Below the pieces are notes generated by a model. It made no database searches. It saw only the letters and a program-made list of their open reading frames with translations, and had not been told where the DNA came from. This document shows positions 26,618-63,694 of a DNA stretch of 64,000 nucleotides, piece by piece. Position 1 is the first letter of the stretch. The number at the start of each line of letters is the position of its first letter. A program made the translations under genes and the position numbers. Location of the stretch: the NCBI GenBank assembly GCA_905193225.1, contig CAJJNV010000008.1, forward strand, positions 5,860-69,859, given 5' to 3'. The DNA comes from an uncultured Oscillospiraceae bacterium. GTDB taxonomy: Bacteria; Bacillota; Clostridia; Oscillospirales; Acutalibacteraceae.

Positions 26618-26621
26618 CTTC

Positions 26622-33163: not shown

Positions 33164-36100
33164 TTATTCAGCAGTTGCAGCCTTTACGGGAAGCTCGGTG
33201 CGGAGCTGTACGAAGTACTGGAGAATTGCCAGTGCATCGGAAGTATCAACAACACCGTCAAGGTTGACGTCGGCAGCCTTGGCAGCAGCCTCATCGAGAG
33301 TACGGGAACCAACGAATGCCTGGAGAGCCCAGAGAGCATCGGTAGAGTCGATAGTGCCGTTTCCGTCAACATCACCGTATTTTACGGTAGGTGCGGGAGG
33401 CTCGTTAATGCGCTCAACGAGCTTGGCAAGCTTATTCTTCTTCTCTGCAGGGACAAGATCCTTCCGAGCGTCGGTAAGAGCGGTGAACTGAGCGTTAGCA
33501 GTAACGATATTTGCCTTGTCAGCATCTGTTAACTCAGCGTCAACTGCGGGCAGAGCATCGATAAGATCCTCAACAGCCTTAGCAGCAGCGATGTCATCGG
33601 TCAGCTCAGTAATCTTTTCACCAACAGCAAAGAGTTTCTCTTTGTTGTTTACGTTGTCCTGAAGTTCCTCGGTAAGAGCATCGAAAGCTGCCTTTGCTTC
33701 ATCGTACTTCGGTTTAACATCATTGAGGTTAGTATAATTGATGTCACCGGGCTCGGTAAGAGCATCGATGAGATCCTCAACGGGTTTAACCTTCTTGATA
33801 ATGTCAAAAGCCTTGCGGACTGCAGCAAGTTTATTGGTTTCTTCGGTGGGAAGCATATCCTTCTTAGCATCGGTAAGAGCATCGAAAGCGTTGCCTGCAT
33901 CAACGATAGCAGCCTCGTTATCGAGGGTTACATCTTTAGCCTCGGGAAGAGCAATGATCTTCTCGTGGACAGCCTTAACATCGGCATTTGCGGGATCGAG
34001 CAGAGCATACTCAAGGATAGCTCTGTCGAGGGTTGCAGAAGCTGCAAGATTTTCAGCAGTTGCAGTGTTGATCCAGTTGTTGAGTGCTTCGCGGGCAGTC
34101 TTTGCAGCCTCGATAGCATCACCGGACTCAGCAGTTACGGTTCCGATAGCGGCAACAGCGTCGATGAATTTCTTCTCGGCGTTAGCGCGTCTTTGGGCAT
34201 AGGCAAAAGATACAACGGCGATGTCCTTCATGTAGAATTTGCCGGAGTTAGCCTGGCCGAAATGGAGGAGGTTAACATTTTCAAGACCGTATTTGGGAGT
34301 CATGTTCTCAACAACGGATGTTCCGATTTCGGAAATGAGGCAGGAAGCTCTCTGCCACTCGTTACCCTTAACGGAAATAACGCTGGGATACTGCCACTGG
34401 ATACCGTTGTCCTCGTTACCGTGGGTAATGTAGAAGGTGTTGTCCTTATCGGGATTTACAAGGAACTCGAACTGATAGTAATCATTGTAGTTGAAGGAAT
34501 GGGTATAGGTGTCTTCACCGAAGTAACGGCCTACACGGACATATACCGAGTTGTAGAGTTCAACATTGGGATAGGAGGTACCGCCGGTCTGAACATCCAT
34601 CCAGAAGGCGCCGTCCTTCATTGCGTGTTCGTTTCCGCAGAAATCAAATACATCCTCAGTGTCCTTTTCGCAGGTGCACATAATGTCGCCCTTGACAATT
34701 ATTCTGGCCTGGTAAGCTTGTTTAACCTTGCTAAGCTTTCCGGGAAGTTCGGGATATTTATTCTTGAACTCGGTAGCCTGAGGTCTGGTAAGACTCCTGG
34801 TAATGGTGTCGATTTCGTCAAGTTTCACCTTGAGTTCAGCCAGGTCATCTTCTTCAGCGGAAACTTCATCGGGCTCGGGAAGAGCCATGATCTTTGCAGC
34901 AAGCTGATCAATGATATCCTTGAACTTCTCTTCTTCTTCTGCGAGAAGAGCGTTAAGTTTCTCTGTGCCCTTAACCTCGGCCTTCTGCTCGTCGGTCAAA
35001 GCATTGTATGCTTCCTTGGCAGCGGCAAGAGCCTTAAGGTCGTTGATGGTGAGAGAGCCGGGTGCGGGAAGAGCGTCGATGAGCTCGTCAACCTGCTCGG
35101 CGGGAGTGAGGTTCTTAATTCCGTAAACATATACCCAGTTGGTATCTTTTTCACCGGCCTGCTCGGGTTCGATTTCGATGTTTACACCGTCATCTGCGGG
35201 GCAGAAGGAGGTGAGGAGGGTCTCTCCGTCGTAAACTTCGATTTCGTAAACGGTAAGAGCGGCGTTGGGAATATCAGCAGATTTTCTTCCGCCGTAAACG
35301 AAGGAAGCCTTGTAAGTATCGGCAGCGTCAACTGCGATCTCGGAAACGAGAGTCTTATAATCGTAATCGTATCTGCTGTTGTGCTCGGTTGCAAGAGCCT
35401 CGTAATCGGCAATGTTGAGTCGGCTTCCGGCATGATTGGAGCCTGCGTCGCCGAGGAGCTGGAGATAACCGAAGTAGCGCTGATCAGAGCCGCCTACGGC
35501 GTTGATCTTAGCCTTAACGGTAAGGGTCTTTCCGGCTTCTACCTCAAACTTATTATTGTCGCCGTAGATGGTGGAGTAAGCCCAAACGAACTTAACACCG
35601 ATCTTGTCGGCCTGTGCCATAAGAGCATCAAGAGCTTCCTTGGCGGCAGTAAGCTTTGCGGCATTGGTAACTTCAGCCTTCTGAATGTCGGTCAGGGCAT
35701 CGAAAGCAGCCTTGGCGGCATTGATGGCGTCGGCGTCGCCGAGGGTAACATCTGCAGCGGCGGGAAGAGCATCGATAGCAGCGATAACTCCTGCAACGGC
35801 AGCGTCAACGGGCCATGCACTGGTGTTGGCCTTCAGAGCGTGGAAATAAGCACTCTGTCCGCCGGGACGGCCGACAAATACCATACCGGTAACCTTGGTG
35901 ATGTCAAACTTAGCACCTGCGGTGGAAAGGTCAACAGCAAAGGTGTTTTCACCGGCGACTACATCGCCGTTAACGGTGAGGCGAACACCGTAATCGGTGT
36001 AAGCTTCGGATTGGGAGATTTTTTCCACAACGGGAAGGTCTCCGTCGAAAGAGGTAAGAACCATACCGTACTGGTCGGGATCTGCAACCTCGCGGCTGAA

Positions 36101-37651
36101 AACGGTCTCGAAGGGAGAATCTCCGCCGAATTCAGATTCCTGAGAAGAACCGGTCCAGTCGATGAATACGCTTTCGATTCCGGTGAGGTTTTTAACCTCC
36201 GCAAACTTAACGCGGGCACGGAGAGGCCACCAAATATTTACGGCATCGCCCTGCCATGCACAGTTGTCTGCCGCTTTCCAGTTGGCAACAGAAGCCTCGG
36301 TGCACTCGTCGAGAACGATCTGGTCCTTGACTTTGAGAGCCTCAAGAGCGGCAACAACAGCGGTAAGCTTTTCAGCATTGGTAACATTAGCCTTTTGCTC
36401 GTCGGTAAGTGCATCATAAGCAGCCTTTGCGGCGAGAATGTCGGCTTTGTTGCCGATAACAACATCGGCAGCCTCGGGCAGAGCGTCGATGGCGGCGATG
36501 ACAGCGTCAACAGCCGCATCGGACTGAACGGCTATGTTGGCGACAACATTGTCGAGCCACTGTACGTGATCTCCGTTGTAAGCGGTGCAGCCCCAGAAAT
36601 AGAATCCGGTAACATTGGTTATGTCAAAGTTTTCACCGGTGGAAACGGGGGTGGTGGTGATGGTAGCGAAGGACTCGTCGCCCTTGCCGTAGCCGGCGCG
36701 GATGGCGGCGACATCAAAAGCCATAACCTTAGAGGTATCAACTTCATTAAGCTCAAAATACCTGTCTCCTCTTTCAGGATTAATTCCGTCATTTCCGCTG
36801 AAGAGGTAGAAGGCTACGTCTGCGGGGCCGGTAAGAGCCTCGGCAGTGTTGGCGGCAAAGTCGAAGGAGATGGACTGGATTCCGGTAAGGTCAAGACCTG
36901 CGATGGGTCCGCCCTGGCAGAAACCGCCGCTCTGAGAGGTGCGGATAGAGCCGGTTCCTTCGGTCTTCTTCTCGGTGGTCACCTCAAGGCCGTCACCCGG
37001 ATAGGGTGCCCAACCCTCTGCGCTGTCGCAGTTGTTGAGCATAACGGTCTTGGTGGTAACAGCAGGAGCATAGTAAACTTCGTCGGTGGTGAGAACCTGA
37101 CGAACAGCGTCCTTACCGTCGAGTATTGTGTTAGCCTTCAAATCGGGACAAAATGCTCTGCCAAGTGCATCTTTAACAATACCGTCCTGAACAGCAGCAT
37201 CAGCGAACTCGCGAACGATACCGGCAAGCTCGCCTCTACCGGCAGCTGCATACTCCTCGGCAGGAGTGGTACCGCCGATAAGGGGGAACTTGGTTGCGAA
37301 ATAAAGGTTTCCGTTTTCATCATAACCCCAAGTGTTTAAGTTCCAGTTTCCGTCAACTCTCTCGTGAGGGTTCTCGGAAGTGGCGGGTAAAATTCCCCAC
37401 TGAGCCTCGTAGCCGTAGCTACTGAGATCAACGGGGCCGCCGTTAAGAGCGGTTAAATCTTCTTCTGTTGCATTGAAAATGAAGCGGGTGGTGCAGTACT
37501 CTGCGCCCTCTTCGGGCTTCATTGCAACAACAGCGATCATTGTTAACTCTTTATCTTCTGCCAAGGTTGAAATCATTCCTGCTGAAAGAACGCTTAAAAC
37601 CATAAGCACAGACAAAAGAACCGACAATGATCTTTTGAATGTTTTTTTCAT
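33164..37651 (-). CDS. giant secreted multi-module protein (1495 aa) with C-terminal dockerin, beta-sandwich (CBM-like) modules, about 9 copies of a ~50-aa helical repeat, and a Cys-rich KDTEDVFDFCGNEH module
   Basis: GGAGGA RBS + ATG at 37651. Signal peptide MKKTFKRSLSVLLSVLMVLSVLSA. Repeats IDALP...AAKAAYDALTDEQKA.V.N..KL. Dockerin DVDGNGTIDSTDALWALQ / DVNLDGVVDTSDALAILQ. Terminator downstream. Confidence 0.8.
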   Translation of the reverse strand: MKKTFKRSLSVLLSVLMVLSVLSAGMISTLAEDKELTMIAVVAMKPEEGAEYCTTRFIFNATEEDLTALNGGPVDLSSYGYEAQWGILPATSENPHERVDGNWNLNTWGYDENGNLYFATKFPLIGGTTPAEEYAAAGRGELAGIVREFADAAVQDGIVKDALGRAFCPDLKANTILDGKDAVRQVLTTDEVYYAPAVTTKTVMLNNCDSAEGWAPYPGDGLEVTTEKKTEGTGSIRTSQSGGFCQGGPIAGLDLTGIQSISFDFAANTAEALTGPADVAFYLFSGNDGINPERGDRYFELNEVDTSKVMAFDVAAIRAGYGKGDESFATITTTPVSTGENFDITNVTGFYFWGCTAYNGDHVQWLDNVVANIAVQSDAAVDAVIAAIDALPEAADVVIGNKADILAAKAAYDALTDEQKANVTNAEKLTAVVAALEALKVKDQIVLDECTEASVANWKAADNCAWQGDAVNIWWPLRARVKFAEVKNLTGIESVFIDWTGSSQESEFGGDSPFETVFSREVADPDQYGMVLTSFDGDLPVVEKISQSEAYTDYGVRLTVNGDVVAGENTFAVDLSTAGAKFDITKVTGMVFVGRPGGQSAYFHALKANTSAWPVDAAVAGVIAAIDALPAAADVTLGDADAINAAKAAFDALTDIQKAEVTNAAKLTAAKEALDALMAQADKIGVKFVWAYSTIYGDNNKFEVEAGKTLTVKAKINAVGGSDQRYFGYLQLLGDAGSNHAGSRLNIADYEALATEHNSRYDYDYKTLVSEIAVDAADTYKASFVYGGRKSADIPNAALTVYEIEVYDGETLLTSFCPADDGVNIEIEPEQAGEKDTNWVYVYGIKNLTPAEQVDELIDALPAPGSLTINDLKALAAAKEAYNALTDEQKAEVKGTEKLNALLAEEEEKFKDIIDQLAAKIMALPEPDEVSAEEDDLAELKVKLDEIDTITRSLTRPQATEFKNKYPELPGKLSKVKQAYQARIIVKGDIMCTCEKDTEDVFDFCGNEHAMKDGAFWMDVQTGGTSYPNVELYNSVYVRVGRYFGEDTYTHSFNYNDYYQFEFLVNPDKDNTFYITHGNEDNGIQWQYPSVISVKGNEWQRASCLISEIGTSVVENMTPKYGLENVNLLHFGQANSGKFYMKDIAVVSFAYAQRRANAEKKFIDAVAAIGTVTAESGDAIEAAKTAREALNNWINTATAENLAASATLDRAILEYALLDPANADVKAVHEKIIALPEAKDVTLDNEAAIVDAGNAFDALTDAKKDMLPTEETNKLAAVRKAFDIIKKVKPVEDLIDALTEPGDINYTNLNDVKPKYDEAKAAFDALTEELQDNVNNKEKLFAVGEKITELTDDIAAAKAVEDLIDALPAVDAELTDADKANIVTANAQFTALTDARKDLVPAEKKNKLAKLVERINEPPAPTVKYGDVDGNGTIDSTDALWALQAFVGSRTLDEAAAKAADVNLDGVVDTSDALAILQYFVQLRTELPVKAATAE

Positions 37652-37866
37652 TGAAAATTCCTCCATTTAATATTTAAGGCCATGCCTTGTTAATAACATT
37701 TTAATAAATACATAGTAAAAAGTCAAGGGGTTTTGACCTTTTTATTTAAAAAATTTTTATATACGGAAGGTTGTTTTTGTACACTTTTTCGAAAATCAAT
37801 ACATAATTTTGAAAATGTGCAGAATTGCATTGTTAGACATTTTTTCAAATAAGAATATAATATACG

Positions 37867-47206: not shown

Positions 47207-49765
47207 TTATTCCACCTTAACGACCTTATACCCCTCTTTTTCCACGGTGGATTTAAGTGTGTCGTCAGAAACATCACCGCCGAGAATAATCTTTGCAAGA
47301 CCGCTCTCGTGGCTGACATCGGCACTTTTAACGCCCTCGATGCCCTCTAATGCTTTCTTAACCCTGCCCGAGCAGTGTCCGCACATCATCCCTTCTATAA
47401 GCATTGTTTTTTCGATTTTGTTTTCCATTTCGTTTTGCTCCTTTACCTTGATTTTTTCTTTTCCGTTATCGCCCTTGCGGGTGTCGTTTTCCGTGCCGTC
47501 GGTCTCTGCCGCCGGCTTTTTCATCTTGAAGAAATTGAGCCGCAAGGCGTTTGTCACAACACAAAAGCTCGAAAGACTCATGGCCGCCGCGCCGAACATA
47601 GGATTAAGCTCCCATCCAAGCAGGCTTATAAAAACTCCTGCGGCAAGAGGTATTCCTATGATGTTGTAAATAAAGGCCCAGAAAAGATTTTCCTTGATAT
47701 TCCTCAGAGTCTTTTTGGAAAGCTCTATTGCCCCTGCAACCTGGCTCAAACTGCTGCCGGTAATGACCACATCGGCCGAATCTATGGCAATATCGGTGCC
47801 CGCTCCCACGGCGATTCCCACATCTGCGGCAGTAAGGGCGGGAGCGTCGTTTATTCCGTCGCCCACCATAATTACCTTTCCGCCTGATTTGTGCTGTTTT
47901 ACGGCCTGTTCCTTGCCCTCGGGAAGCACTCCCGCAATGACCTCATCGACCCCTACGGCCTTTGCCACGGCGTCGGCGGTCTTTTGGTTATCTCCCGTTA
48001 GCATAACAGTTTTAATGCCCATCTTCTTCATATCGGAAATTGCCCGTTTGCTGTCCTCTCTTATTTCGTCGGCAACGGCGATTATTCCGAGAAGGGTATC
48101 ATTCTCACAGAAGAACATAGGGGTCTTGCCCTGTTCCGAAAGAGCCTCGGCGGCGCTTTTTGCCTCTTTCGATATTTCCGTATGTTCCGAAATGTATTCG
48201 GCATTTCCTCCGAGCAGTGTCTTTCCGTCTATTTTGGCGCATATTCCCTTCCCCGAAACCACCTTTATCTCGTCCGAATCGGCAAGAACCGTTCCCTGCT
48301 TTTTGGCATAATAGACAATAGCCTTCCCGAGAGGATGCTCGCTTTTTTGCTCGACAGACGCGGCGGCCCTCACAAGCTTTTGCTCCTCGCAGTTTATGGG
48401 CACAAGGTCGGTAACGGCAGGCTTGCCCTTTGTTATGGTGCCTGTTTTGTCAAGCAGCACGGTTTTTGCCCGCCCGGTCTGTTCGAGAGATACGGCGGTT
48501 TTGAAAAGTACGCCGTTTTTGGCTCCAACGCCGCTTCCCACCATAATGGCAACGGGCGTGGCAAGGCCGAGAGCACAGGGGCAACTGATGACAAGCACAG
48601 ATATGGCTCTTCCAACGGCAAATCCGAAATCCTTACCGATCAGCAGCCACACTACAAGGGTCAAAATGGCTATGCCTATGACCGTGGGAACAAATATTCC
48701 CGACACCCTATCGGCAAGTCTTGCCACAGGTGCCTTTGTGCCCGATGCGTCGCTGACCATTTTTATTATCTTGGCAATGGCGGTGTCCTCTCCGACGCCC
48801 TTTGCCTCGCATTTAATATATCCTGCGCGGTTGACGGTAGCGGCCGAGACTTTGTCTCCTTTTCTTTTTTCGACAGGCAGGCTTTCACCTGTCAGAGCCG
48901 ATTCGTCCACCGAGGCTTCACCATCTAAAACGATTCCGTCAACGGGAATGTTTCCGCCCGAGCGCACGGCAAAGATGTCCCCCACCTTGACCTGAGAAAC
49001 CGGCACTTCGGTCTCCTTTCCGTCCTTTATTACAAAGGCGGTTTTGGGAGTTAGGTCCATAAGAGCCTTTATGGCATTTGTGGTCTTTCCCTTTGAACGG
49101 GCTTCGAGCATTTTGCCGAGAGTTATAAGAGCAAGTATCATTGCGGCCGATTCGAAATAAAGGCCGTGATAAAGCTCCATTTGCACCATACTGTCGGTAA
49201 CGGCAGTCATTTTAAAGAGGATGTATGTGCTGTATAAAAATGCGGCGGCCGACCCCATGGAAACGAGGGTATCCATATTGGGCGAGCGGTTTATGATGCC
49301 TTTAACGCCGCTTATAAAGAATTTTTGGTTGATAACACACACTGCCCCCGACAAAATCAGCTGTAAAAGTCCGAGAGCAATGTGATTATGCTCGAAAAAC
49401 GCCGGCACAGGAAAGCCCCACATTGCATGACCCATTGAAAAATACATCAAAACCGCCAGTATAATAAGAGAACTGACAAGCCGTCTTACAAGCTTAGGGG
49501 TTTGTTTATCCTCGATTTGCCCGTTTTGCCCGCTTTGAGTGGAGTTTCCGGCCGACTGCCCGTTTCGGCCGACGGCCCTTGCGCCGTATCCCGCCTTTTC
49601 CACCGCCTCGATAATTTCGGCAGCGGCAGCCGTTCCTTCCACCGTCATGGAGTTTGTCAAAAGGTTTACCGAGCAGGCTTTGACCCCCTCAACCTTTGAA
49701 ACCGCCTTTTCCACACGGGCGCTGCAGGCGGCACAGCTCATCCCCGTTACATTGTATCTATCCAC
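47207..49765 (-). CDS. copA: copper-translocating P1B-type ATPase with N- and C-terminal HMA domains
   Basis: [12 protein letters not shown] (HMA), CPC motif ([12 protein letters not shown]), [16 protein letters not shown]-terminal [10 protein letters not shown]. Confidence 0.9.
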
Positions 49766-49775
49766 GGATTACACC

Positions 49776-50078
49776 TCACTTCATAAGCCGACGAAGGGTA
49801 TCGATAAGCTCGTCGACGGTCTGTTCCTTTCCGTTTTTAATATCGTCGGTAACGCAGGTTTTTATGTGTTCCTCCAAAAGCTTTCGGTTAAAAGCGTCCA
49901 GCGCCGAGGAAGCGGCCTGAGCCTGCATCATTATATCAACGCAATAAGCGTCGTTTTCTATCATTCCTTTTATTCCCCGAATCTGCCCTTCTATTCTGTT
50001 TAGTCGGTTGATGAGCTTTTTGTGCTCCTCGGCAGATCGGATCTTGTTTCTGTGGCAGTGACAGCATTTTTCCTGCAT
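49776..50078 (-). CDS. csoR: CsoR-family copper-sensing transcriptional repressor
   Basis: 100 aa all-helical protein carrying the Cys, His and Cys ligand positions of the CsoR metal site (Cys44, His69, Cys73 of this protein). Directly upstream of copA. Confidence 0.8.
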   Translation of the reverse strand: MQEKCCHCHRNKIRSAEEHKKLINRLNRIEGQIRGIKGMIENDAYCVDIMMQAQAASSALDAFNRKLLEEHIKTCVTDDIKNGKEQTVDELIDTLRRLMK

Positions 50079-50309: not shown

Positions 50310-52202
50310 ATGAACGATCCCTTTGTACACAAGCCGGTTTCCGGATCGGCACAGGACGAGACCTGCCCGCAGGACAGCACCGCTGAGCAAAACAATACCG
50401 CTGCTCAAAACAATACCGCTGCTCAAAACAATACCGCTGCTCAAAGCAACACTACCGTGCAAGACACCACCGCCACACAAAACATTACTGTCGCACGAAA
50501 CAATGCCATCCGGCAAGGCACTTCCGTCACGCAAAGCATCTCAGATAGCAGCAAAAGCACTGCAGCTAAATCTCCAAATAATCGTTCCTTTTACGGCGAC
50601 GTGCTGAACACTGCGGGAAGTATTTTCTTTGCTGCAATGGCGGGATTTTTCCCCCTTTTCTGCGGCGGAAGCTATAACATAATTCTTGATTCAAAATATG
50701 CTGCCTTTGAAACCATAACAATTTTTTCGGCGGTATTTTTCGTTTTTTTCTGCCTTCTTAAAAATGTTTCCATCCGCCGCTCTAAACCGTCGATCACTTT
50801 AACGGATCGAACAAAAGCCTCCTTTAAATCTGCCGTTCTGACGCTCGTCAAAACGGCCGACGTCACGGTTATTCTGCTTATATGCTTCTGCCTTTTGACG
50901 CTTCTTTCAGCCGTCCTTTCACCCTATGCCTTTTCCCTTAATTCGGCGGGAAAAAGCGCGGTGATTTTCGGATCGGGGCGATATGACGGGCTGTATGTTT
51001 TAGCCCTTTACGTCGCGGTTTTTGCCCTTTCATATTTTTTCGTAAAGTTTGATTATAAATGCGTTTTGCTGGTTGGTGCGGTCACCCTTATTATGTCGAT
51101 CATCGGCATACTTCAGCTTTTCGGCATAAACGCCTTCGGCCTCTACCCGGCTGACATTTACACCGGTTATTACGCCGAGTTCATTTCCACCATGGGCAAC
51201 ATTGATTTTATGTCGGCGCTCATGTCTATGTTTTTGCCTCTTGTCTTCGGCTGCTTTTTGTCGGCGGACGGGAGCAGAAAAAGCGAGGCTTTTCTACTGA
51301 TTTGTTTCTTTGTCGGCGGATTCTGCCTTATAAAAACCGATGTCCAGTCGGGTATGATTGCCCTTCTTGTAACGGCGGCGCTGACCCTTCCCCTCTCTTT
51401 AAAAAGCAAAAGAAGTCTTGCCAAAGCCCTTGTATTTTTGCAAACGTCGACGGTGCTCATATGGCTTTGCAACTGCTTTGATCTTTCTAAGGGAGAGGGC
51501 ACGACGGTTGTGCAATTTTGCATAAACGCAAAGCTGACGATTGCCGCAGCCGCAGTGATTTTCCTGCTTTTAGCCTTGCTGATTCTGCAAAGGAAAAAAG
51601 GACTTTCAAAAAAAGTCCTGTCAAAACTCCCCTGCGCCCTATTTATTTTTGAAGGAGCGGCCCTTTTGCTCCTTGCCGCATATATGTATTTCCTTTTCAC
51701 CCCCGCCGACAAAGACAACGCCTTAAACCAGCTTTACGCCCTGCTTCACGGAAGCCTTTCCCAAAGCTCGGGCTCGGGCAGGGGCGGCATTTGGAAATAC
51801 AGCTTTTTAATGGGTCTTGAGCGCCCCGTTTTAGGCCATGGGCAGGGATGCTATAAGCTTGCCATGGACGATTTTTCCGCAAGGGTAGGTTACACATACT
51901 ACACATCAAGAAACGCCTCTCTCGACGCCGCACACAACGAATTTTTGCAGCTTTTCTGCACCGGCGGTATTTTAGGCCTTTTAAGCTATGCGGGAGCTCT
52001 CGCCTCCCTTATTGCAAGGAGTATAAAAAGGCGATTTAGCGGAAAATACACCGTTTGCCTGCTTTCGGCGGTTGTCGGCTATCTTGTCCAAAGCTTTTTC
52101 ACCTTTTCCATCGTCGAGGTGGCTCCCGTATTCTTTATGCTTTGCGGAATTCTTTTGCATAATGTGCGGGACGCCGAAAAGGTTTCCTCACCGGAAAAAT
52201 AA
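50310..52202 (+). CDS. O-antigen ligase/polymerase-domain (Wzy_C) polytopic membrane protein with N-terminal low-complexity repeat
   Basis: About 12 TM. Motif SGSGRGGIWKYSFLMGLERPVLGHGQG matches the Wzy_C loop. N-terminus carries a TAAQNN x3 repeat encoded by an 18-bp tandem DNA repeat. Confidence 0.6.
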   Translation: MNDPFVHKPVSGSAQDETCPQDSTAEQNNTAAQNNTAAQNNTAAQSNTTVQDTTATQNITVARNNAIRQGTSVTQSISDSSKSTAAKSPNNRSFYGDVLNTAGSIFFAAMAGFFPLFCGGSYNIILDSKYAAFETITIFSAVFFVFFCLLKNVSIRRSKPSITLTDRTKASFKSAVLTLVKTADVTVILLICFCLLTLLSAVLSPYAFSLNSAGKSAVIFGSGRYDGLYVLALYVAVFALSYFFVKFDYKCVLLVGAVTLIMSIIGILQLFGINAFGLYPADIYTGYYAEFISTMGNIDFMSALMSMFLPLVFGCFLSADGSRKSEAFLLICFFVGGFCLIKTDVQSGMIALLVTAALTLPLSLKSKRSLAKALVFLQTSTVLIWLCNCFDLSKGEGTTVVQFCINAKLTIAAAAVIFLLLALLILQRKKGLSKKVLSKLPCALFIFEGAALLLLAAYMYFLFTPADKDNALNQLYALLHGSLSQSSGSGRGGIWKYSFLMGLERPVLGHGQGCYKLAMDDFSARVGYTYYTSRNASLDAAHNEFLQLFCTGGILGLLSYAGALASLIARSIKRRFSGKYTVCLLSAVVGYLVQSFFTFSIVEVAPVFFMLCGILLHNVRDAEKVSSPEK

Positions 52203-52297: not shown

Positions 52298-52326
52298 TTG
52301 ATTTTAAGCGCCGCGGGTGGTATAAT
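52298..52326 (+). promoter_or_regulatory. sigma-A-type promoter of the stn-like operon (TTGATT-17-TGGTATAAT, extended -10)
   Basis: -35 TTGATT at 52298-52303, 17-nt spacer ending TGG, -10 TATAAT at 52321-52326, about 125 nt upstream of the ATG. Confidence 0.55.
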
Positions 52327-52451
52327 TGCCGATGAATATATTATTTGCCGAAAACGGCAACGGACAGTTAAGGCGATACCGCAGATTAAAATAAAAATCC
52401 GCAGGGTATCGGCCTGTCGCAAGCTTACGGTTCGGCGTTAGGAGGACGGTT

Positions 52452-52940
52452 ATGTGCAACTGTAAACCAAGCGATCTTTCGCTGATCGACCCTGTACTCG
52501 AAAAATACGGTAATTCTTCCGGAAATCTCATCACCATTCTGCAAAAGGGTCAGGAAATATACGGTTATCTGCCAACCGATGTCATTTATAAAATAGCCGA
52601 AAAAACCGGCACCACCCCCGCTAAGGTCATGGGAGTGGCCACATTCTACACCCAGTTCAGATTAAAGCCCATAGGCAGGTATCTCATCATGCTGTGTAAG
52701 GGAACGGCCTGCCATGTCAACGGCGCCGACCGTATCGAATCGGCTCTTTGCGAGGAGCTTAAAATAAAGGACGGCGAGACCACCGACGACGGTCTTTTCA
52801 CCCTTAAAAACGTCGCATGTCTCGGATGCTGCTCCCTTTCGCCGGTCATGATGATAAACGAAGAGACCTTCGGAAATCTTACCCCCGAAAAGGCGGTCGG
52901 CATCATAAAGGATTTAAGAGAAAGGGGCGGTGACAAATGA
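52452..52940 (+). CDS. NuoE/HydC-like thioredoxin-like [2Fe-2S] subunit (StnA-like)
   Basis: 162 aa with CKGTACHVNGA...CLGCCSLSPV. GGAGGA RBS. Confidence 0.8.
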   Translation: MCNCKPSDLSLIDPVLEKYGNSSGNLITILQKGQEIYGYLPTDVIYKIAEKTGTTPAKVMGVATFYTQFRLKPIGRYLIMLCKGTACHVNGADRIESALCEELKIKDGETTDDGLFTLKNVACLGCCSLSPVMMINEETFGNLTPEKAVGIIKDLRERGGDK

Positions 52941-54673
52941 GAATAGCGGTCGGACAGGGAAGCTGCGGTATCGCGGCGGGCGCCGGCGGGGTCTATTCCC
53001 GCCTCAAAGAGCTTTGCAATGACGTACATACCACAGGATGTATCGGTATGTGCTTTGCCGAGCCCATCGTTGACATCTACGACGGAAAGGCACTTAAAAA
53101 ACGCCTTGTAAAGGTCAAGGCCGACGATACCGAAAGAATCGCAAACGCCGTAAATTCCGGCGATCTCGAAAGTCTCAACGATCTTGAGATATCTCCCGAG
53201 GATGAAGCCTTTCTCGACGGACAGACCCGCATTGCGCTGCGCAACTGCGGCATAATCGATCCCACAAGCATCGACGAATACATTGCCGTCGGCGGATATG
53301 AGGCCGTTAAAAAGGCGGTGTGCGAGCTTTCTCCCGAGCAGGTCATCGACATCATAAAGGTCTCCGGCCTTGCGGGACGCGGCGGTGCGGGATTCCCCAC
53401 CTGGTTTAAATGGAATGCGGCAAGACAGTCGGTCTCGGATAAAAAATATCTCATATGCAACGCCGATGAGGGCGATCCCGGCGCATTTATGGACCGTGCC
53501 GTAATCGAAAGCGATCCCCATAATCTCATTGAAGGTATGCTCATCGGCGCATACGCCATCGGTGCCGACGAATGCGTTGTTTACGTCCGCGCAGAATACC
53601 CCCTTGCCATCGTGCGCCTTGAGGAAGCCATTAAGCAGGCCGCCGAAAAGGGAATGCTCGGCAAAAACATTTTCGGCAGCAATTTCAACTGTACAATACG
53701 CATAAAAGCCGGTGCAGGCGCATTTGTGTGCGGTGAGGAAACCGCCCTTATCGAATCCCTTGAAGGAAAACGCGGTATGCCCCGTCTCAAGCCCCCCTTC
53801 CCGGCTCAGTGCGGATATAACGGCCTTCCCTCCAACATCAATAACGTCGAGACCTTCGCCAATGTCCCCTGGATAATCAAAAACGGCGGCGAGAAATTTG
53901 CCGCAATGGGCACCCAGACCAGCAAGGGCACCAAGGTCTTTGCCCTGACAGGTAAAATAAAGCGGGGCGGCCTTGTGGAAATCCCAATGGGTAAAACCCT
54001 TAGGGATGTAATCTTCGGCATAGGCGGCGGAATCAGAGACGGCAAGGAATTTAAAGCCGTGCAGATGGGCGGCCCTTCAGGCGGATGTATTCCCAAAGAG
54101 CTGCTGGACACGGTCATCGACTATAAAGCCCTTTCGGCCACCGGAGCGATAATGGGCTCGGGCGGAATGGTGGTTATGGACGAAAGCACCTGTATGGTGG
54201 GAATGGCAAAATTCTTCCTCGATTTTACGACCAAGGAATCCTGCGGAAAATGCGTTCACTGCCGTCTCGGTACCAAGAGAATGCTCGGCATACTCACCCG
54301 AATCGTAAACGGCGAGGGAAAAGAGGGCGATTCAGAACTGCTTGAAGAGCTTTGCTATGCCGTTAAGGACGGCGCTCTTTGCGGCCTCGGCCAGACTGCG
54401 CCAAACCCCGTGCTCACCACGCTCAAATACTTTAAAAACGAATACGACGCTCACATTAACGATAAAAAATGTCCCGCAAAGGAATGTGCCGAGCTTATAA
54501 CCTACTCTATCGACAGCGAAAAATGCCGCGGCTGTTCCCTTTGCGCCAAAAAATGTCCTGTGGGCGCCATTTCCGGGCAGCTTAAAAACCCGTATGAAAT
54601 AAACACCGAGCTTTGCATTAAATGCGGCAACTGCCTGACCGCCTGTCGTTTCGGCGCGGTTTTTGCACAATAA
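52937..54673 (+). CDS. NuoF/HydB-like NADH-binding FMN/Fe-S subunit (StnB-like)
   Basis: GRGGAGFPTWFKW (FMN/NADH site), N-terminal 2Fe-2S, C-terminal 2x[4Fe-4S] (CRGCSLCAKKCP / CIKCGNCLTAC). 4-nt overlap with the upstream gene. Confidence 0.85.
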   Translation: MRIAVGQGSCGIAAGAGGVYSRLKELCNDVHTTGCIGMCFAEPIVDIYDGKALKKRLVKVKADDTERIANAVNSGDLESLNDLEISPEDEAFLDGQTRIALRNCGIIDPTSIDEYIAVGGYEAVKKAVCELSPEQVIDIIKVSGLAGRGGAGFPTWFKWNAARQSVSDKKYLICNADEGDPGAFMDRAVIESDPHNLIEGMLIGAYAIGADECVVYVRAEYPLAIVRLEEAIKQAAEKGMLGKNIFGSNFNCTIRIKAGAGAFVCGEETALIESLEGKRGMPRLKPPFPAQCGYNGLPSNINNVETFANVPWIIKNGGEKFAAMGTQTSKGTKVFALTGKIKRGGLVEIPMGKTLRDVIFGIGGGIRDGKEFKAVQMGGPSGGCIPKELLDTVIDYKALSATGAIMGSGGMVVMDESTCMVGMAKFFLDFTTKESCGKCVHCRLGTKRMLGILTRIVNGEGKEGDSELLEELCYAVKDGALCGLGQTAPNPVLTTLKYFKNEYDAHINDKKCPAKECAELITYSIDSEKCRGCSLCAKKCPVGAISGQLKNPYEINTELCIKCGNCLTACRFGAVFAQ

Positions 54674-54687
54674 CGGAGGTGGGAAAA

Positions 54688-56724
54688 ATGGAAAAAATCA
54701 TTAACATTGTCATCGACGGAAAGGCCGTTTGCGCAAAGGAAGGCCAGACCGTTTTAAAGGCGGCGGCCGATGCCGGAATAGAGATTCCCACCCTTTGTCA
54801 GAACGAAACGGTCAAGGTATACGGTGCCTGCGGACTGTGCGTTGTGGAGGCCGAAGGAATTCCAAAACTGTTGCGTGCCTGCTCGGCAAAGGTCAGCGAG
54901 GGAATGGTCATTCACACCCACTCAAAGCGGGTCGACCAGTCCCGCAAGATAGCTCTCGAGCTGCTTATGAGCGATCACGAGGGCGATTGCATAGGCCCCT
55001 GTTCTCTCAACTGTCCGGCCCACACCGATTGCCAGGAATATGTCAAACAAATAGCCCTCGGCAACGACAAAAAGGCGGTTGAGGTCATCAAGGAAAGAAT
55101 ACCCCTTCCCCGCTCCATCGGCAGAGTATGTCCCCATCCCTGTGAGACCGCCTGCCGCAGAAAAAATGTTGAGCAGCCCATTTCCATATGCTCACTTAAA
55201 GCCTTTGCGGCCGACAAAAACAAAAATTCAGACGACCGCTTTATCCCCGAGATCAGCGCCCCCACGGGAAAGACGGTGGGAATTATCGGAGGAGGCCCCG
55301 GAGGACTTACCGCCGCATATTTCCTTGCGCTGAAAGGCCATAAGGTAACAGTTTACGATATGATGCCAAGAATGGGTGGAATGCTCCGTTACGGAATTCC
55401 CGAATACCGTCTGCCCAAGGCCGTTTTAGACTCCGAAATCGCCGACATTGCCTCTCTCGGAGTGGAATTTAAAAACAACTTTAAAATCGGAAAAGACGCG
55501 AGCTTTGAAGATATAAAATCGCAGCACAACGCCGTTATTGTCGCCATCGGAGCCTGGAAGAGCATGGGACTCAGATGCGGTGGAGCAGAACTTTCGGGAG
55601 TTTACGGAGGAATTGATTTCCTTGAAGCGGTAGCCCTTAAAAAGGCTCCCGAAATCGGCAAAAGCGTGGCTGTGATCGGCGGAGGAAACACCGCAATGGA
55701 CGCCTGCCGCACGGCGGTACGACTGGGCGCAGAAAAGGTATACGTTGTATACCGCCGCACCCGTGCCGAAATGCCGGCCGAGGACATTGAAATCGAGGAA
55801 GCAATGGAAGAGGGCGTGGAATTTAAATTTCTCACAAATCCCGATACCATTTTGGGCGAAAACGGCCGTGTTTCCGGTATCAAGCTTCAGGTTATGGAGC
55901 TTGGCGAGCCTGACGAAAGCGGACGCCGCTCCCCTGTTGCGGTTGAAGGCAAGTTTGAACAGATAAGTGTTGATTCGGTCATCTCGGCTCTCGGCCAGCG
56001 CATAAGTGCCGAAGGCTTTGAAGAAATCGAAAAGAACGTCAAAGGCAACATTGCCGCCGACGAAGGCACATATAAGACCAATCTCGACGGCGTTTTTGCC
56101 GTGGGCGACGCCACAAACAAGGGTGCATTTATCGCTATCGACGCCATCGGCGAGGCAGGACGGTGCGCCGTAATCTGCGATGCCTTCCTTCACGGTGTTG
56201 ATGTTTATTACAAAAAGCCCTTCGTTTCCGAGCGCAAGGCAGAGGACATCGATTTTTCGGAATATAAAAAAGCTCCCCGCGCCAAAATGCCCACAAGACC
56301 CGCAAACGAACGCAAAAAGGATTTCGGCGAAGTGGCACTGGGCTTTTCGGACGAGCAGGCAAGAGAGGAAGCAAAGCGCTGTCTCGAATGCGGATGCCAC
56401 GATTACGGTCACTGCAAGCTAATTAAATATGCAAACGATTATCCCATAAGTCCCGCAAGACTGGGTGAAGAGAAGCATCCCTGTTTTGTCGAACACCGCC
56501 TTAATGTTATCGAGCGCAATCAGGGAAAATGCATTCTTTGCGGACTTTGCGTGAGAATATGTGATGAGGTTGCAAAGCAGGGCATTCTCGGACTTGTCGG
56601 ACGCGGATTTACAACCGTTATTAAGCCCGAGTTCAACAAACCCGAAACCATAGCCATCTGCGCTTCCTGCAAAAAGTGCGCCGAAGGCTGTCCCACAGGC
56701 GCCCTTAAAATAATCAAAAAGTAA
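54688..56724 (+). CDS. fusion of [2Fe-2S]/[4Fe-4S] HydA-N-terminal-like Fe-S domains with a GltD-like NAD(P)H:FAD oxidoreductase domain, no H-cluster (StnC-like)
   Basis: N-terminal 2Fe-2S (CQNETVKVYGACGLC) and CxxC clusters. GIIGGGPGGLTAAYFL and AVIGGGNTAMD dinucleotide-binding motifs of glutamate-synthase-beta-like proteins. C-terminal 4Fe-4S. GGAGGTG RBS + ATG at 54688 (track ORF starts 54622). Confidence 0.75.
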   Translation: MEKIINIVIDGKAVCAKEGQTVLKAAADAGIEIPTLCQNETVKVYGACGLCVVEAEGIPKLLRACSAKVSEGMVIHTHSKRVDQSRKIALELLMSDHEGDCIGPCSLNCPAHTDCQEYVKQIALGNDKKAVEVIKERIPLPRSIGRVCPHPCETACRRKNVEQPISICSLKAFAADKNKNSDDRFIPEISAPTGKTVGIIGGGPGGLTAAYFLALKGHKVTVYDMMPRMGGMLRYGIPEYRLPKAVLDSEIADIASLGVEFKNNFKIGKDASFEDIKSQHNAVIVAIGAWKSMGLRCGGAELSGVYGGIDFLEAVALKKAPEIGKSVAVIGGGNTAMDACRTAVRLGAEKVYVVYRRTRAEMPAEDIEIEEAMEEGVEFKFLTNPDTILGENGRVSGIKLQVMELGEPDESGRRSPVAVEGKFEQISVDSVISALGQRISAEGFEEIEKNVKGNIAADEGTYKTNLDGVFAVGDATNKGAFIAIDAIGEAGRCAVICDAFLHGVDVYYKKPFVSERKAEDIDFSEYKKAPRAKMPTRPANERKKDFGEVALGFSDEQAREEAKRCLECGCHDYGHCKLIKYANDYPISPARLGEEKHPCFVEHRLNVIERNQGKCILCGLCVRICDEVAKQGILGLVGRGFTTVIKPEFNKPETIAICASCKKCAEGCPTGALKIIKK

Positions 56725-57055
56725 CCGGGTATTTAAAGGCACTTCATAAATTCAATAAAAGATTATGCGGTCGTAAAATTTCTCGGCCGCTTTTCTTTTG
56801 CGGGTCTGCCGATTACCTTTGCCGGTTGATTTTTTTATACTTGCTGCGCTTCTTTTTATCCCACTTTTTCCCTTTATAACCGTCTATCTGTTTTTGAAAC
56901 CTCTTTTCATTTCCTAAACTTTTTTTGTTTCTAAAACCTTTTTTCCGCTTTGAAACGCTTGCCTTTTTCTTCCGACAAAAAACACTTGTAATTCTTTTAC
57001 GGTTATTGTATAATTTATTTTGTCGAATTATGTGCCGTAAAGGAGGTCTGTAATC

Positions 57056-58018
57056 GTGAACAAAACAATCGACAGTTTTGAGGAGACAAAAACCGAAGAA
57101 ATATCGGCTGACGCTCCGAAGGTTTCACTTGCAGAAAAGCCAAAGCGCAAACGCCGCTTCGGCGACCGATACGACGGTTATCGCGTTAAAAAGCTGGACA
57201 CCCAGTTCTGGATCGTTCCAAACATTATGAGAACCAGAACCGACAGTCAGGTCTTTTTTAACGAGGTCATAGGGGTCGGAGAGCTCGACCGCTATATCCA
57301 CAAAAAGCGTGAAGGTGAAATTCCCAATCTTCGTATGATACACGTTATCATTGCCGCCACCATCCGCCTTTTTGCCGAACGCCCGAGACTTAACCGTTTT
57401 ATCGCAGGAAAAAAGATTTTTGCCCATAACAACATCCGCCTGTCAATGTCCATCAAGCGGTCGATGACCGACGACGGCGAGGAGACCGAGATTCTTCCGG
57501 TATTTGAACCGACCGACACGCTTTATGACGTTGTCAGAAAATTCGAGGACGCCCTTTCCGAAAGCATTGAGGAAGCAACCAAACAAAACAACAACACAGA
57601 CAAGGTGGCCGGCGCTTTAAGCCACATTCCCACCTGGCTCAAAAGTTTTGTGGTTTTTGCCATCCGCAATCTCGACAAGATCGGTCTTATGCCCAAGATG
57701 ATATACCACGCAAGTCCCTTCCATTCCAGCGTTTTCATCACCGATGTAGGCAGCCTTGGTATCGACTCGATCTATCATCATCTTTACGAATTCGGAACCA
57801 CATCCTGCTTTATTGCAATGGGCAAAAAGCAGTTTGTTCCATTCGTCCGTCCCGACGGAACCCTCGGACAGCGAAAGATTATAAACTTCCGCTTTGTACT
57901 CGACGAACGCATTTGCGACGGATATTATTACGCCGCATCAATCAAGAAATTCCGTCGGTACATAAAGCATCCCGAGCTTCTTGAACTGCCCCCCGAGAAC
58001 CTTCCCGACGAGATATAA
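57056..58018 (+). CDS. 2-oxoacid dehydrogenase E2 catalytic-domain-like (CAT-fold) protein; GTG start
   Basis: C-terminal LDERICDGYYYAASIKKF aligns to the E2 DHRxxDG motif but with Glu in place of the catalytic His. AAAGGAGG RBS. Upstream TTGTAA-17-TGTATAAT promoter. Confidence 0.5.
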   Translation: MNKTIDSFEETKTEEISADAPKVSLAEKPKRKRRFGDRYDGYRVKKLDTQFWIVPNIMRTRTDSQVFFNEVIGVGELDRYIHKKREGEIPNLRMIHVIIAATIRLFAERPRLNRFIAGKKIFAHNNIRLSMSIKRSMTDDGEETEILPVFEPTDTLYDVVRKFEDALSESIEEATKQNNNTDKVAGALSHIPTWLKSFVVFAIRNLDKIGLMPKMIYHASPFHSSVFITDVGSLGIDSIYHHLYEFGTTSCFIAMGKKQFVPFVRPDGTLGQRKIINFRFVLDERICDGYYYAASIKKFRRYIKHPELLELPPENLPDEI

Positions 58019-62077: not shown

Positions 62078-63694
62078 TTATGCTTCCTTCTCTTTGAGAA
62101 CGATTTCATAAACCGTAATTCCGTTCTGACGGGCAATGACGTAAATTTTTCCGTCGATAACATTGATGCCTTCCGGCTCGGGCGACCAGGAATTCCATTC
62201 GGGCATATCCACCTGGAATTTAAGCTGACCGTTCCAATCGTATATTCTCAGCTCCGAGAAGGTGGCGCCTCCCGCATGAGAACGAACGAAATAGATATAT
62301 TCCGAATCGCAGAAAACGCCCTGAGAAAGGGATGAGGGCTGCGTCACGTCAAATTCGTTGAGCAGCGTCAGATCGCCGTTCCAGGTGTGTACCTTCTGAC
62401 CTGCCGAAAATCCCGACGCATACTTATCAAGCACCGGGCTGTATGCCATAGAGAAAAAATTCCGCTCGCAGGTGCCGCTTGAAATCTCTTTCAATGTATC
62501 GGCGTCGATAAAGGAATATACATTCCAGCCGGGCTGGCAATGGGAAACGAGATAGGCATTCATCTTTGGCACAAAGGTGACATTGTTTCCGTGCTCAATG
62601 TTGAGCTGCTCGCTCCACTTGATTATGCTGCCGTTTTTGTCGTATTCGGCAATTATTCCGACCTCGTTGTTCTGGCGCATGGAGCCTCTTGTCAGCGCGC
62701 AGACAAACTTGGTTCCGTCGAAATATCCGCCCTGAATGTTTGTATAATTTGCATCGGGAGTTTTAAAATTGAGAATCTGCTTATACTCGCCGACGGCGTA
62801 GCTTTTGCCCTCCTCGAGGGTAAGGGTCGAGGAAAAATATTTGGATTTTTCGCCGATACGGGGCCTCTCCCCTACTGCGAAGCTTTTGACTGTTCCGACA
62901 TAATACTGCAGTATGAGAAGTGCGTCCTTCGCCGTGATCTCACCGCTTGCATCCACATCGCAAAGCTGCTTTTGACCATCGTCAAGCTGCACTATTCTGA
63001 CCGCCGTCTGAAGGCCCAAAAGGGCGTCGCTGACATCGATCTCGCCGCTTTTGTTTACGTCTCCGAAGGCGTATTCCGACAGCTTTCCGTCCAAAATGTC
63101 GATGTAATTATCGCTGACCGCAAAGAAATTGTCGAAATAAAGGATCGGCTTAACGTTCTCTTTAAGATTATCTATAAAGGCCAGCTTAACGGCCTTGATG
63201 CTGCTCCAGCTTGCAGTTTTATCCTTAACCGCCACCTGTGTCTTTTTGAAAACGATCTTGTTAAGTCCCTCCGACATTTTGCCGGGTATAACATAGTCAA
63301 AACCGCTGTCGGCCGATTTATCGGGCAAAAAGGAGATGAGAAGGCTGCCGTTATCAAAGCTGTTTTGAGAAAAGACGTCTATGTTAAAATACTCGAATAA
63401 CGAAAGATCTATCTTCCCCACATCCACCTTCATTCCGGCGGCGATTTTATCGTCGCGGTTGCTGGCTAAGATGGGAGACATTTTTGTGGACGACGATCCT
63501 TGAGAAACATATTTTTCATCTGTGTTTTGGGCGATAAGGCAGATGCCGATCCGTTCACAGCTTGGATTATCAAAGCTTTCGATCATCAAATTGCCGAAGG
63601 AATCGGTGCGCTGCGTACCGTTATCCGCGCTGCAAAGAATCACGCCCGACAGCGATAGGCAAACCGCAAGAACAATGCATACAAATTTTTTCAT
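62078..63694 (-). CDS. secreted protein with N-terminal beta-sandwich module, internal dockerin and a C-terminal beta-propeller-like domain
   Basis: Signal peptide MKKFVCIVLAVCLSLSGVILCSA. Dockerin DVNKSGEIDVSDALLGLQ / DVDASGEITAKDALLILQ. C-terminal WNGDL...IYDWNGQL repeats. Start ATG overlaps the stop of the upstream paralog (TGATG). Confidence 0.7.
   Translation of the reverse strand: MKKFVCIVLAVCLSLSGVILCSADNGTQRTDSFGNLMIESFDNPSCERIGICLIAQNTDEKYVSQGSSSTKMSPILASNRDDKIAAGMKVDVGKIDLSLFEYFNIDVFSQNSFDNGSLLISFLPDKSADSGFDYVIPGKMSEGLNKIVFKKTQVAVKDKTASWSSIKAVKLAFIDNLKENVKPILYFDNFFAVSDNYIDILDGKLSEYAFGDVNKSGEIDVSDALLGLQTAVRIVQLDDGQKQLCDVDASGEITAKDALLILQYYVGTVKSFAVGERPRIGEKSKYFSSTLTLEEGKSYAVGEYKQILNFKTPDANYTNIQGGYFDGTKFVCALTRGSMRQNNEVGIIAEYDKNGSIIKWSEQLNIEHGNNVTFVPKMNAYLVSHCQPGWNVYSFIDADTLKEISSGTCERNFFSMAYSPVLDKYASGFSAGQKVHTWNGDLTLLNEFDVTQPSSLSQGVFCDSEYIYFVRSHAGGATFSELRIYDWNGQLKFQVDMPEWNSWSPEPEGINVIDGKIYVIARQNGITVYEIVLKEKEA

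Follow-up and report, generated by a model that had tools for sequence, protein, structure and literature searches.

Bifurcating flavin/iron-sulfur enzymes of the Stn/NfnABC (Nfn-Bfu) family are known from Sporomusa ovata, Caldicellulosiruptor saccharolyticus (Csac) and Thermococcus sibiricus, and the biochemistry of these three enzymes defines the reaction (PMC7483475, PMC11829005, PMC12018979). The large subunit StnC of S. ovata has 1172 amino acids (aa), of which residues 683-1172 make up an FdhF-like domain (PMC10482914). Csac NfnA has 1178 aa with the same Fdh-like lobe (PMC11829005), and T. sibiricus NfnA has 963 aa with a reduced one (PMC12018979). In the table of StnC homologues given by Kremp et al., lengths run from 891 to 1241 aa (PMC7483475). 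An Fdh-like domain, whole or partial, is present in every characterised member of the family. Here we describe an operon of three genes, A, B and C, from an uncultured Oscillospiraceae bacterium (contig CAJJNV010000008.1, assembly GCA_905193225.1); the window below means the whole 64-kb stretch of DNA that was analysed. The operon quite probably encodes a soluble three-subunit flavin/iron-sulfur enzyme that belongs to this family, bifurcates electrons and lacks the Fdh-like domain.

Kumar et al. described a linear electron path, FAD-C7-C6-C5-C4-C3-B1-FMN, together with the off-path clusters C1 and C2. The clusters of the Fdh-like domain are dead ends off the electron path (PMC10482914, PMC11829005). 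K170 of StnC is an unusual ligand of the FAD-proximal [4Fe-4S] cluster and was reported to be strictly conserved and essential, and the GltD-like FAD in Stn is not the bifurcating flavin (PMC10482914).

Family assignment of the operon

Three open reading frames (ORFs) on one strand span positions 52452-56724 of the window.

52452-52940, plus strand: gene A, NuoE/HydC-like small subunit (StnA / NfnC / BfuC), 162 aa, thioredoxin-like [2Fe-2S]
52937-54673, plus strand: gene B, NuoF/HydB-like FMN/NAD(H) subunit (StnB / NfnB / BfuB), 578 aa
54675-54681, plus strand: ribosome-binding site of gene C, GGAGGTG, which begins 1 nucleotide (nt) past the gene B stop
54688-56724, plus strand: gene C, short StnC/NfnA-type large subunit, 678 aa

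Genes A and B overlap in the sequence ATGA, which holds the TGA of A and the ATG of B. For gene C, a start at the ATG in position 54622, within gene B, was rejected, as the homologues did not support it and all began at MEK... (ATG 54688). Because the start at 54688 has both a ribosome-binding site and the agreement of homologues, gene C was taken to encode 678 aa.

The original prediction had described a cluster of NuoE-like, NuoF-like and Fe-S plus GltD-like genes and had assigned it to the Stn type. The ORFs and their Pfam domains agreed with this description, and the assignment held as well: StnABC (8oh5) and NfnABC (9bov) were the best solved matches of all three proteins. In the sequence comparison that had been proposed with StnABC, NfnAB and HydABC, StnABC and NfnABC were far ahead of HydABC, NfnSL and GltD.

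Protein A has the C-terminal thioredoxin-like [2Fe-2S] domain of BfuC-type subunits (PF01257, E = 8e-53). It retains the motifs CKGTACHV and CLGCCSLSP, with all four [2Fe-2S] cysteines kept. Its best matches in the PDB were 9bov_C (E = 1.4e-64, 62% identity) and 8oh5_A (E = 1.4e-55, 55% identity).

Protein B comprises a Complex1_51K FMN domain (Pfam, E = 1.5e-49), an NADH_4Fe-4S domain (E = 2e-31) and a C-terminal Fer4 pair. It matched best 8oh5_B (E = 2.8e-253) and 9bov_B (E = 1.3e-248). The alignment with StnB was full-length, with residues 1-576 on 1-582 at 65% identity, and the cysteines at 10/35/39, 436/439/442/482, 512/517, 530-540 and 560-570 matched those of StnB. B retains an N-terminal thioredoxin-like cysteine pattern, an H..CPAKEC linker of the Zn-site type and a C-terminal 2x[4Fe-4S] domain. 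According to Schut et al. (PMC9304861), these three features set bifurcating BfuB apart from non-bifurcating NuoF homologues. Judged by the alignment and the conserved cysteines, B should have the FMN/NADH site, the [4Fe-4S] cluster B1, the linker and the ferredoxin domain of a BfuB-type protein. In the PDB sequence search, HydABC subunits ranked next after Stn/NfnABC for both A and B.

The large subunit

Protein C can be divided into three segments.

54688-54975, plus strand: C residues 1-96, HydA/NuoG-type N-terminal [2Fe-2S] domain (Fer2_4, E = 7e-19; Cys 37, 48, 51 and 65)
54976-56379, plus strand: C residues 97-564, H97-x3-C-x3-C-x3-CP and then the GltD/NfnL-like domain (Fer4_20 and Pyr_redox_2)
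56380-56724, plus strand: C residues 565-678, C-x2-C-x-C-x5-C and then two C-x2-C-x2-C-x3-C motifs (615-625 and 658-668)

Pfam domains were found in the order Fer2_4, Fer4_20, Pyr_redox_2 and a C-terminal 4Fe-4S dicluster. The [2Fe-2S] domain and one half of a split His/Cys motif are followed by a GltD/NfnL-like FAD and NADPH domain with two [4Fe-4S] clusters. After it come the other half of the split motif, a 2x[4Fe-4S] ferredoxin-like domain and the stop codon, which lies 10 codons past the last cysteine. The halves of the split motif (HxxxCxxxCxxxCP ... CxxCxCx5C) are at residues 97-110 and 565-576, and the GltD-like domain is inserted between them. Residues 565-678 align with StnC 524-671 and with HydA ~98-207. 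The FAD motif GGGPGG is at residue 201, and the NADPH motif GGGNTA is at 331 with YRR at 355-357. The [2Fe-2S] and [4Fe-4S] motifs, the two dinucleotide sites and the C-terminal 4Fe-4S motifs that the original prediction had read in the third ORF were thus all found. As it had also said, H-cluster motifs (TSCCP, MPCxxK, ExMxCxxGC) were absent from C.

The ligand residues are conserved in detail. All 24 cysteines common to the first 670 residues of StnC and Csac NfnA are present in C, and so is H97. K171, C115 and R241 of C are the equivalents of StnC K170, C114 and R239. Cys 37, 48, 51 and 65, which are also found in StnC and NfnA, are invariant in 34 short-form sequences; the other ligand cysteines, H97, K171, C115 and R241 are likewise invariant in them.

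Over residues 3-673, the best PDB matches of C were 9bov_A (E = 4.9e-224) and 8oh5_C (E = 1.3e-212), with 50-52% identity. The AlphaFold model of C had a mean predicted local distance difference test score (pLDDT) of 89.5 and a predicted template modelling score (pTM) of 0.85. Superposed on 8oh5_C and 9bov_A, it gave query-normalised template modelling (TM) scores, TMq, of 0.90 and 0.88, respectively.

It might be argued that C is a GltD variant linked to glutamate synthase, or a relative of [FeFe]-hydrogenase, which A and B feed with electrons from NADH. The best NCBIfam model for C was indeed PRK12814, 'putative NADPH-dependent glutamate synthase small subunit' (E = 5e-200), although its 666 bits are below the cut-off of 916, and the models FeFe_hydrog_A6 and HoxU matched the N-terminus. 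However, GltD chains cover only residues 105-490 of C, at E = 8e-72 compared with 5e-224 for NfnA. NfnL chains match only residues 103-500 (5jca_L, E = 5e-86), and for HydA chains the match is confined to the Fe-S module, some 100 residues at the N-terminus (E = 1e-34). No gltB was found in the 64-kb window, where the sole ORF of 1500 aa encodes a dockerin protein, and none is conserved beside the homologues. There was no hydrogenase among the annotated ORFs of the window. The original prediction would have been abandoned if the third gene had been closest to complete [FeFe]-hydrogenase subunits or to plain GltD with a gltB nearby; HydA matched over ~100 residues, GltD at E = 1e-72, and the window held no gltB. 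Together with the lack of H-cluster motifs, these results already contradict the GltD/hydrogenase explanation, which we consider very improbable. C is also not placed as in NfnAB/NfnSL, as its neighbours are NuoE- and NuoF-like and not FNR-like.

Absence of the Fdh-like domain

C ends exactly at the point where the Fdh-like lobe starts, and the PDB alignments end at StnC residue 671. Gene order is the same as in StnABC, as the original prediction had stated. The claimed agreement in domain content failed, because the FdhF-like residues 683-1172 of StnC are absent from C. The StnC that it had described, with a HydA-type Fe-S part and a GltD-like part only, fits the shortened protein of the window and not the published StnC of 1172 aa. 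The C-terminal FdhF/NuoG-like domain of the family is therefore missing in C. The Pfam domains Molybdop_Fe4S4 and Molybdopterin had no match in C and the other short forms but matched the long forms P0124 and P0125. The target-normalised TM-score of the C model was only 0.52-0.53 on StnC and NfnA, which fits a missing domain of ~490 residues.

From the motifs, C would retain the [2Fe-2S] cluster, the two clusters of the GltD domain, the split His/Cys cluster and the pair in the ferredoxin-like domain; the only one lost would be that of Molybdop_Fe4S4. Counted over the whole trimer, the motifs predict about 9 [4Fe-4S] and 3 [2Fe-2S] clusters, with 1 FMN and 1 FAD. The chain that carries electrons from NADPH to the B/A core thus appears intact in the window enzyme. 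One side cluster, formerly buried, would sit at or near the surface.

Distribution and phylogeny of the short form

Relatives were surveyed in one genome per species. Relatives are encoded in 342 stretches, and the locus analyses were made on the best 80 of these. C is 673-694 aa long in all 79 loci in which the ORF reaches a stop. Among 5.8 billion proteins, the 120 best matches of C all have 674-687 aa; homologues at E <= 1e-30 number at least 8000, and this length range covers the best 120. The order A-B-C was present in every related locus with sufficient upstream DNA. The 80 loci are mostly from Oscillospiraceae, Ruminococcus, Acutalibacteraceae, Faecousia and unclassified metagenome-assembled genomes (MAGs) of Clostridia, from human, ruminant and other guts. 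The nearest matches, with 96-97% identity, are 'Eubacteriales' MAGs from the Hadza gut.

In view of the stop of C exactly where the Fdh-like domain of StnC begins, we also considered whether a full-length stnC had been truncated to a pseudogene or cut short by an assembly artefact. The same end point in 79 of the 80 species-level genomes and in the top 120 database homologues argues against this. A terminator-like hairpin follows the stop, no remnant of an Fdh-like sequence was seen in the 330 nt before the next gene or in the related loci, and the ligand residues are invariant across the clade. Conservation refutes such a truncation, and we leave it next to no chance.

A search by tblastn with the Fdh-like domains of ten long forms found no match in the window and the 80 loci (1.38 Mb). 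Therefore, no split-off Fdh-like partner is encoded nearby. ORF clustering within 4 kb on either side of the 80 loci revealed no conserved fourth gene. The largest flank family occurred in 14 of the 80 loci and is a housekeeping one; the scattered flank genes included ParA, ParB and SerRS. On these two results, a fourth subunit or a split-off Fdh-like gene was rejected. No NuoG/Fdh-like SfrA gene was found in the window or the related loci, and the partners of C are NuoE- and NuoF-like, so that the operon does not resemble the SfrAB type.

These searches also bear on the possibility that A-B-C is an NAD(P)H/ferredoxin module and supplies electrons, by way of an exposed cluster of the ferredoxin domain, to a catalytic partner that is unlinked. 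Such a partner might be a hydrogenase, an Nso/Sfr-type reductase of sulfur or metal, or some other oxidoreductase. C has both ferredoxin-like cysteine motifs, including that of the cluster which leads to the H-cluster in HydA and to a dead-end branch in Stn. Without the Fdh-like domain, the second cluster of the ferredoxin domain should lie close to the surface. Bfu enzymes are modular (PMC9304861), and a T. litoralis homologue was first called a sulfur oxidoreductase (cited in PMC7483475). However, no neighbouring gene was conserved within 4 kb in the 80 genomes, and the 1.38 Mb of related DNA contained no Fdh-like coding sequence. In addition, C has its own site for a third substrate, FAD/NADPH, which defines a Type 1 Bfu enzyme. 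It seems quite unlikely that the complex is such a module.

In the library clustered at 50% identity, the clade of the window is a single representative, P0121 (677 aa). The next matches are long forms of 1000-1250 aa with 50-55% identity. In a neighbour-joining tree of the shared region of 155 large-subunit sequences, built without bootstrap support, the short clade nests among the long forms, including StnC and Csac NfnA, and C is accordingly placed inside the Stn/NfnABC family. This nesting implies that the Fdh-like domain was lost, rather than never gained.

Other short proteins were observed in the same library. P0174, P0225, P0229, P0235, P0213, P0240 and P0259 have ~675-720 aa and 41-48% identity and end right after the ferredoxin-like domain. 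These proteins branch apart in the tree, and some of them may be gene fragments. These sequences hint that the Fdh-like domain might have been lost several times independently. Nearest to the short clade, P0123 (839 aa) and P0135 (706 aa) match the query to residues 599 and 529, respectively, beyond which their sequences are unrelated to it. Frameshifted or chimeric gene calls might explain them, or they may represent further variants of the architecture. A short-form A-B-C operon, with 63-64% identity in C, was also seen in a complete chromosome labelled Bacteroidales (L043 10001-12034, OY759745.1) and in a Bacteroidaceae MAG (L073). Horizontal transfer from Firmicutes or mislabelling could account for these occurrences.

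Public records call homologues of C only 'FAD-dependent oxidoreductase' or '4Fe-4S dicluster domain-containing protein', and the cluster members bear generic MAG names. A non-exhaustive search of the literature, which included the homologue table of PMC7483475 (shortest entry 891 aa), did not find a StnC/NfnA of ~680 aa.

Operon signals and genomic surroundings

The following signals were found around the operon.

52298-52326, plus strand: sigma-70-type promoter-like site of putative function, TTGATT-17 nt-TATAAT with TG ahead of the -10 box, 10 of 12 consensus matches
52333-52451, plus strand: leader of ~120 nt; it contains a small hairpin (GCCGAAAACGGC) and a 7-bp stem, and the ribosome-binding site AGGAGG is at 52440-52445
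56767-56799, plus strand: terminator-like hairpin of putative function, GCGGUCG, a 10-nt loop and CGGCCGC, then UUUUCUUUU (U-run)

The promoter-like site is the one that the original prediction had read, and it is kept in the two nearest relatives (L001 and L002). Promoter-like sites are not in excess in the operon region, with 4 found and 4.6 expected. The predicted 7-bp hairpin of the leader also exists (CGATACC/GGTATCG, at 52374-52411), and the leader folds moderately better than shuffled sequence (minimum free energy -38.7 kcal/mol, z = -2.6). The stem is not conserved in L001, a relative with 97-98% identical proteins, and the leader had no match in Rfam. A regulatory RNA (riboswitch or attenuator) was dropped for these two reasons. 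An upstream operator of the NADH sensor Rex was dropped as well: the best site in the window had mismatches at 5 of 14 positions, and the upstream regions of 68 loci were marginally above background. The hairpin and U-run at 56767-56799 look like the terminator of the operon; the consensus terminator scan skipped this hairpin because its loop exceeds 8 nt.

The genes that flank the operon are not functionally linked to it. The other features of the window were as follows.

6026-8350 (plus), 8674-10323 (plus) and 62078-63694 (minus): dockerin-bearing proteins, two with CE2 esterase N-terminal domains, one of these also with a GDSL lipase domain
14408-16498, minus strand: ORF of 696 aa without a Pfam match, adjoining an MMPL-family transporter (16526-18598)
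19503-32149, minus strand: dcw cluster of cell-division and cell-wall genes, with FtsZ, FtsQ-like, EPSP-synthase-fold (MurA-like), MurG, FtsW, MraY, Mur ligase, PASTA-domain penicillin-binding protein and MraW
33164-37666, minus strand: ORF of 1500 aa, Pfam match only to a C-terminal type I dockerin, the rest without a family at E <= 1e-5; presumably cellulosomal
47207-50078, minus strand: copper-efflux pair of a CopA-type P-type ATPase (852 aa, two HMA domains) and a CsoR-type repressor (100 aa), upstream of the neighbour gene of the operon
50310-52202, plus strand: membrane protein of 630 aa with a Wzy_C (O-antigen ligase-like) domain and about four to five (~4-5) N-terminal copies of the hexapeptide TAAQNN
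57056-58018, plus strand: protein of 320 aa with only the C-terminal third of a 2-oxoacid dehydrogenase acyltransferase catalytic domain, with its own promoter-like site at 56986-57014

The gene of the 320-aa protein follows the operon only in the closest three relatives (L001-L003) and is therefore outside the conserved unit. A cell-wall amidase is also encoded downstream of the operon, and ThrRS elsewhere in the window. The content of the window indicates a chromosome of a cellulosome-type fibre-degrading member of Oscillospirales. The nearest genomes and the dockerin and CE2 genes are consistent with the Ruminococcus-like fibre-degrading lineage that had been suggested from the letters alone.

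Proposed function and mechanism

By homology, the enzyme would catalyse 2 NADPH + NAD+ + 2 Fd(ox) <-> 2 NADP+ + NADH + 2 Fd(red) + H+, where Fd is ferredoxin. The mechanism outlined here is drawn from the solved homologues (PMC10482914, PMC11829005, PMC12018979). NADP(H) would bind to the GltD-like FAD domain of C. From there, electrons would move singly along the Fe-S clusters of C until they reach B, with its [4Fe-4S] cluster and FMN; the chain in C would consist of the Lys-ligated cluster, the second [4Fe-4S] cluster, the split His/Cys cluster, the [2Fe-2S] cluster and one cluster of the ferredoxin domain. The electron pair would be split at the FMN/[4Fe-4S]/[2Fe-2S] site made by B and A. 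One part would pass to NAD+, with NAD(H) bound at the FMN of B. The other would reach low-potential ferredoxin by way of A's mobile [2Fe-2S] domain and the 2x[4Fe-4S] domain at the C-terminus of B. Ferredoxin would dock at the latter domain, with the mobile domain of A acting as the gate.

In analogy to the known enzymes, the operon product most likely uses NADH and reduced ferredoxin to make NADPH. In a fermenting gut member of Oscillospirales, the physiological direction is likely to be from NADH and Fd(red) to NADPH for biosynthesis. The complex is probably a single ABC heterotrimer of ~155 kDa and not a tetramer of trimers, because the tetramer contacts of Stn and Csac Nfn use the Fdh-like lobe and T. 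sibiricus NfnABC is an active monomeric heterotrimer.

Several points weigh against this proposal. Deletion of the FdhF-like domain of S. ovata StnC left no functional complex (PMC10482914), and the N-terminal domain of the Csac small subunit lies in a cleft that is partly built by the Fdh-like lobe (PMC11829005). Assembly and tight coupling of the short form are therefore not to be assumed. The short-form lineage must have compensated for the lost domain, or its coupling may differ. All family enzymes that have been assayed have a longer architecture than the short form. The large-subunit tree, on which the loss of the domain is argued, is a neighbour-joining tree without bootstrap values. 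The specificity for NADPH and the direction in vivo, as proposed here, rest on motifs and analogy. The genome beyond the window may also carry a canonical NfnAB, hydrogenases or an Fdh-like protein. In acetogens, Stn and Nfn exclude one another.

Alternatively, the loss of the Fdh-like domain might have made the complex a simple non-bifurcating oxidoreductase, with uncoupled NAD(P)H-ferredoxin or NADH-NADP+ transfer. The domain that C lacks was indispensable for the S. ovata complex (PMC10482914), Stn itself has low uncoupled side activities (PMC7483475), and bifurcation by the short form is argued from homology. However, B has every feature that distinguishes BfuB from NuoF, and A keeps its [2Fe-2S] cluster (PMC9304861). 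All clusters of the lost domain are dead ends off the path (PMC10482914, PMC11829005), and T. sibiricus NfnABC bifurcates with a reduced domain (PMC12018979). Uncoupled transfer is thus an unlikely explanation, and we prefer bifurcation.

A bolder reading of the loss is that the exposed second [4Fe-4S] cluster of the ferredoxin domain became an extra electron port. This would make the enzyme a four-way redox hub that joins NADH, NADPH and ferredoxin to an unlinked partner, or would give it a coupling different from that of Nfn-Bfu enzymes. We regard this as rather unlikely. In a modest version, the enzyme is possibly a natural minimal bifurcating heterotrimer, which assembles without the domain that is indispensable in S. 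ovata.

The supply of NADPH and the balance of NADH and ferredoxin are poorly assigned in fibre-degrading bacteria of the gut and rumen. The family assignment gives a concrete candidate for a link from ferredoxin and NADH to NADPH in many genomes of Oscillospiraceae, Ruminococcus and Acutalibacteraceae, and the enzyme of the operon is likely to be a major NADPH-generating route in these fibre degraders. By itself, a stn/nfnABC-type operon in a Ruminococcus-like genome is an ordinary family member, and the family, its reaction and its structure are already known. What stands out is a large subunit that is conserved and widespread and has no Fdh-like domain, undescribed in the literature that we found. 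At ~155 kDa per trimer, compared with 214 kDa, it would be a natural Nfn-Bfu complex about 30% smaller. With neither dead-end clusters nor a tetramerisation domain, it would offer a simpler system for the flavin/Fe-S bifurcation site. The short form also bears directly on the published finding that assembly requires the Fdh-like domain.

Comparison with known systems

StnABC of S. ovata (8oh5/8oh9; PMC7483475, PMC10482914) has the same order of a nuoE-like gene, a nuoF-like gene and the gene of the large subunit. Identity is 55% for A, 65% end to end for B and 50% for C, the last to StnC residues 4-671. The window enzyme keeps every Fe-S ligand of the FAD-C7-C6-C5-C4-C3-B1-FMN path, together with K170, C114 and R239. 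The two systems differ in that StnC's FdhF-like domain carries an extra [4Fe-4S] cluster and mediates the tetramer, whereas C of the window stops at residue 678. A of the window is also ~11-14 residues shorter at its N-terminus. The host of the window is a gut fermenter and not an acetogen, and its operon is not beside Wood-Ljungdahl genes.

Csac NfnABC (9bov/9bp5; PMC11829005) is the best overall match of C (52% identity, TMq 0.88) and of A (62%). It has the same cofactor-binding motifs, and its host is also a plant-fibre-degrading Firmicute. Its NfnA differs in having the Fdh/NuoG-like lobe with dead-end clusters, which is absent from C, and its holoenzyme is a tetramer of trimers.

The closest functional precedent is NfnABC of T. 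sibiricus (9n5u/9n5v; PMC9304861, PMC12018979), an active bifurcating single ABC heterotrimer with a reduced Fdh-like domain. It shows that the reaction can proceed without a tetramer and without the complete Fdh-like domain. It differs from the window enzyme in being archaeal, in the ~270 Fdh-like residues that remain in NfnA and in the low identity of NfnA to C (39%). T. sibiricus NfnA is also without the cysteines of the second ferredoxin-domain cluster, which C keeps.

Among HydABC [FeFe]-hydrogenases (7p5h, 7q4v, 8a6t), HydB is related to B (E = 1e-169 to 1e-207) and HydC to A (E = 1e-34 to 1e-48). Taken together, the Fe-S parts at the two ends of C correspond to the N-terminal [2Fe-2S] / His-cluster / 2x[4Fe-4S] module of HydA. 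C differs in that it has no H-cluster domain, and in that the GltD-like FAD/NADPH domain is inserted in its His-cluster motif. NfnAB/NfnSL (5jca, 4ylf) and GltD (6s6s) share the fold of C residues ~103-500 and its two [4Fe-4S] clusters, with target-normalised TM-scores of 0.79-0.82. The partners of these proteins are unrelated to A and B, and the window has neither an NfnS/FNR-like subunit nor GltB beside C. NfnL differs further in its cluster ligand, which is Glu there and Lys in C.

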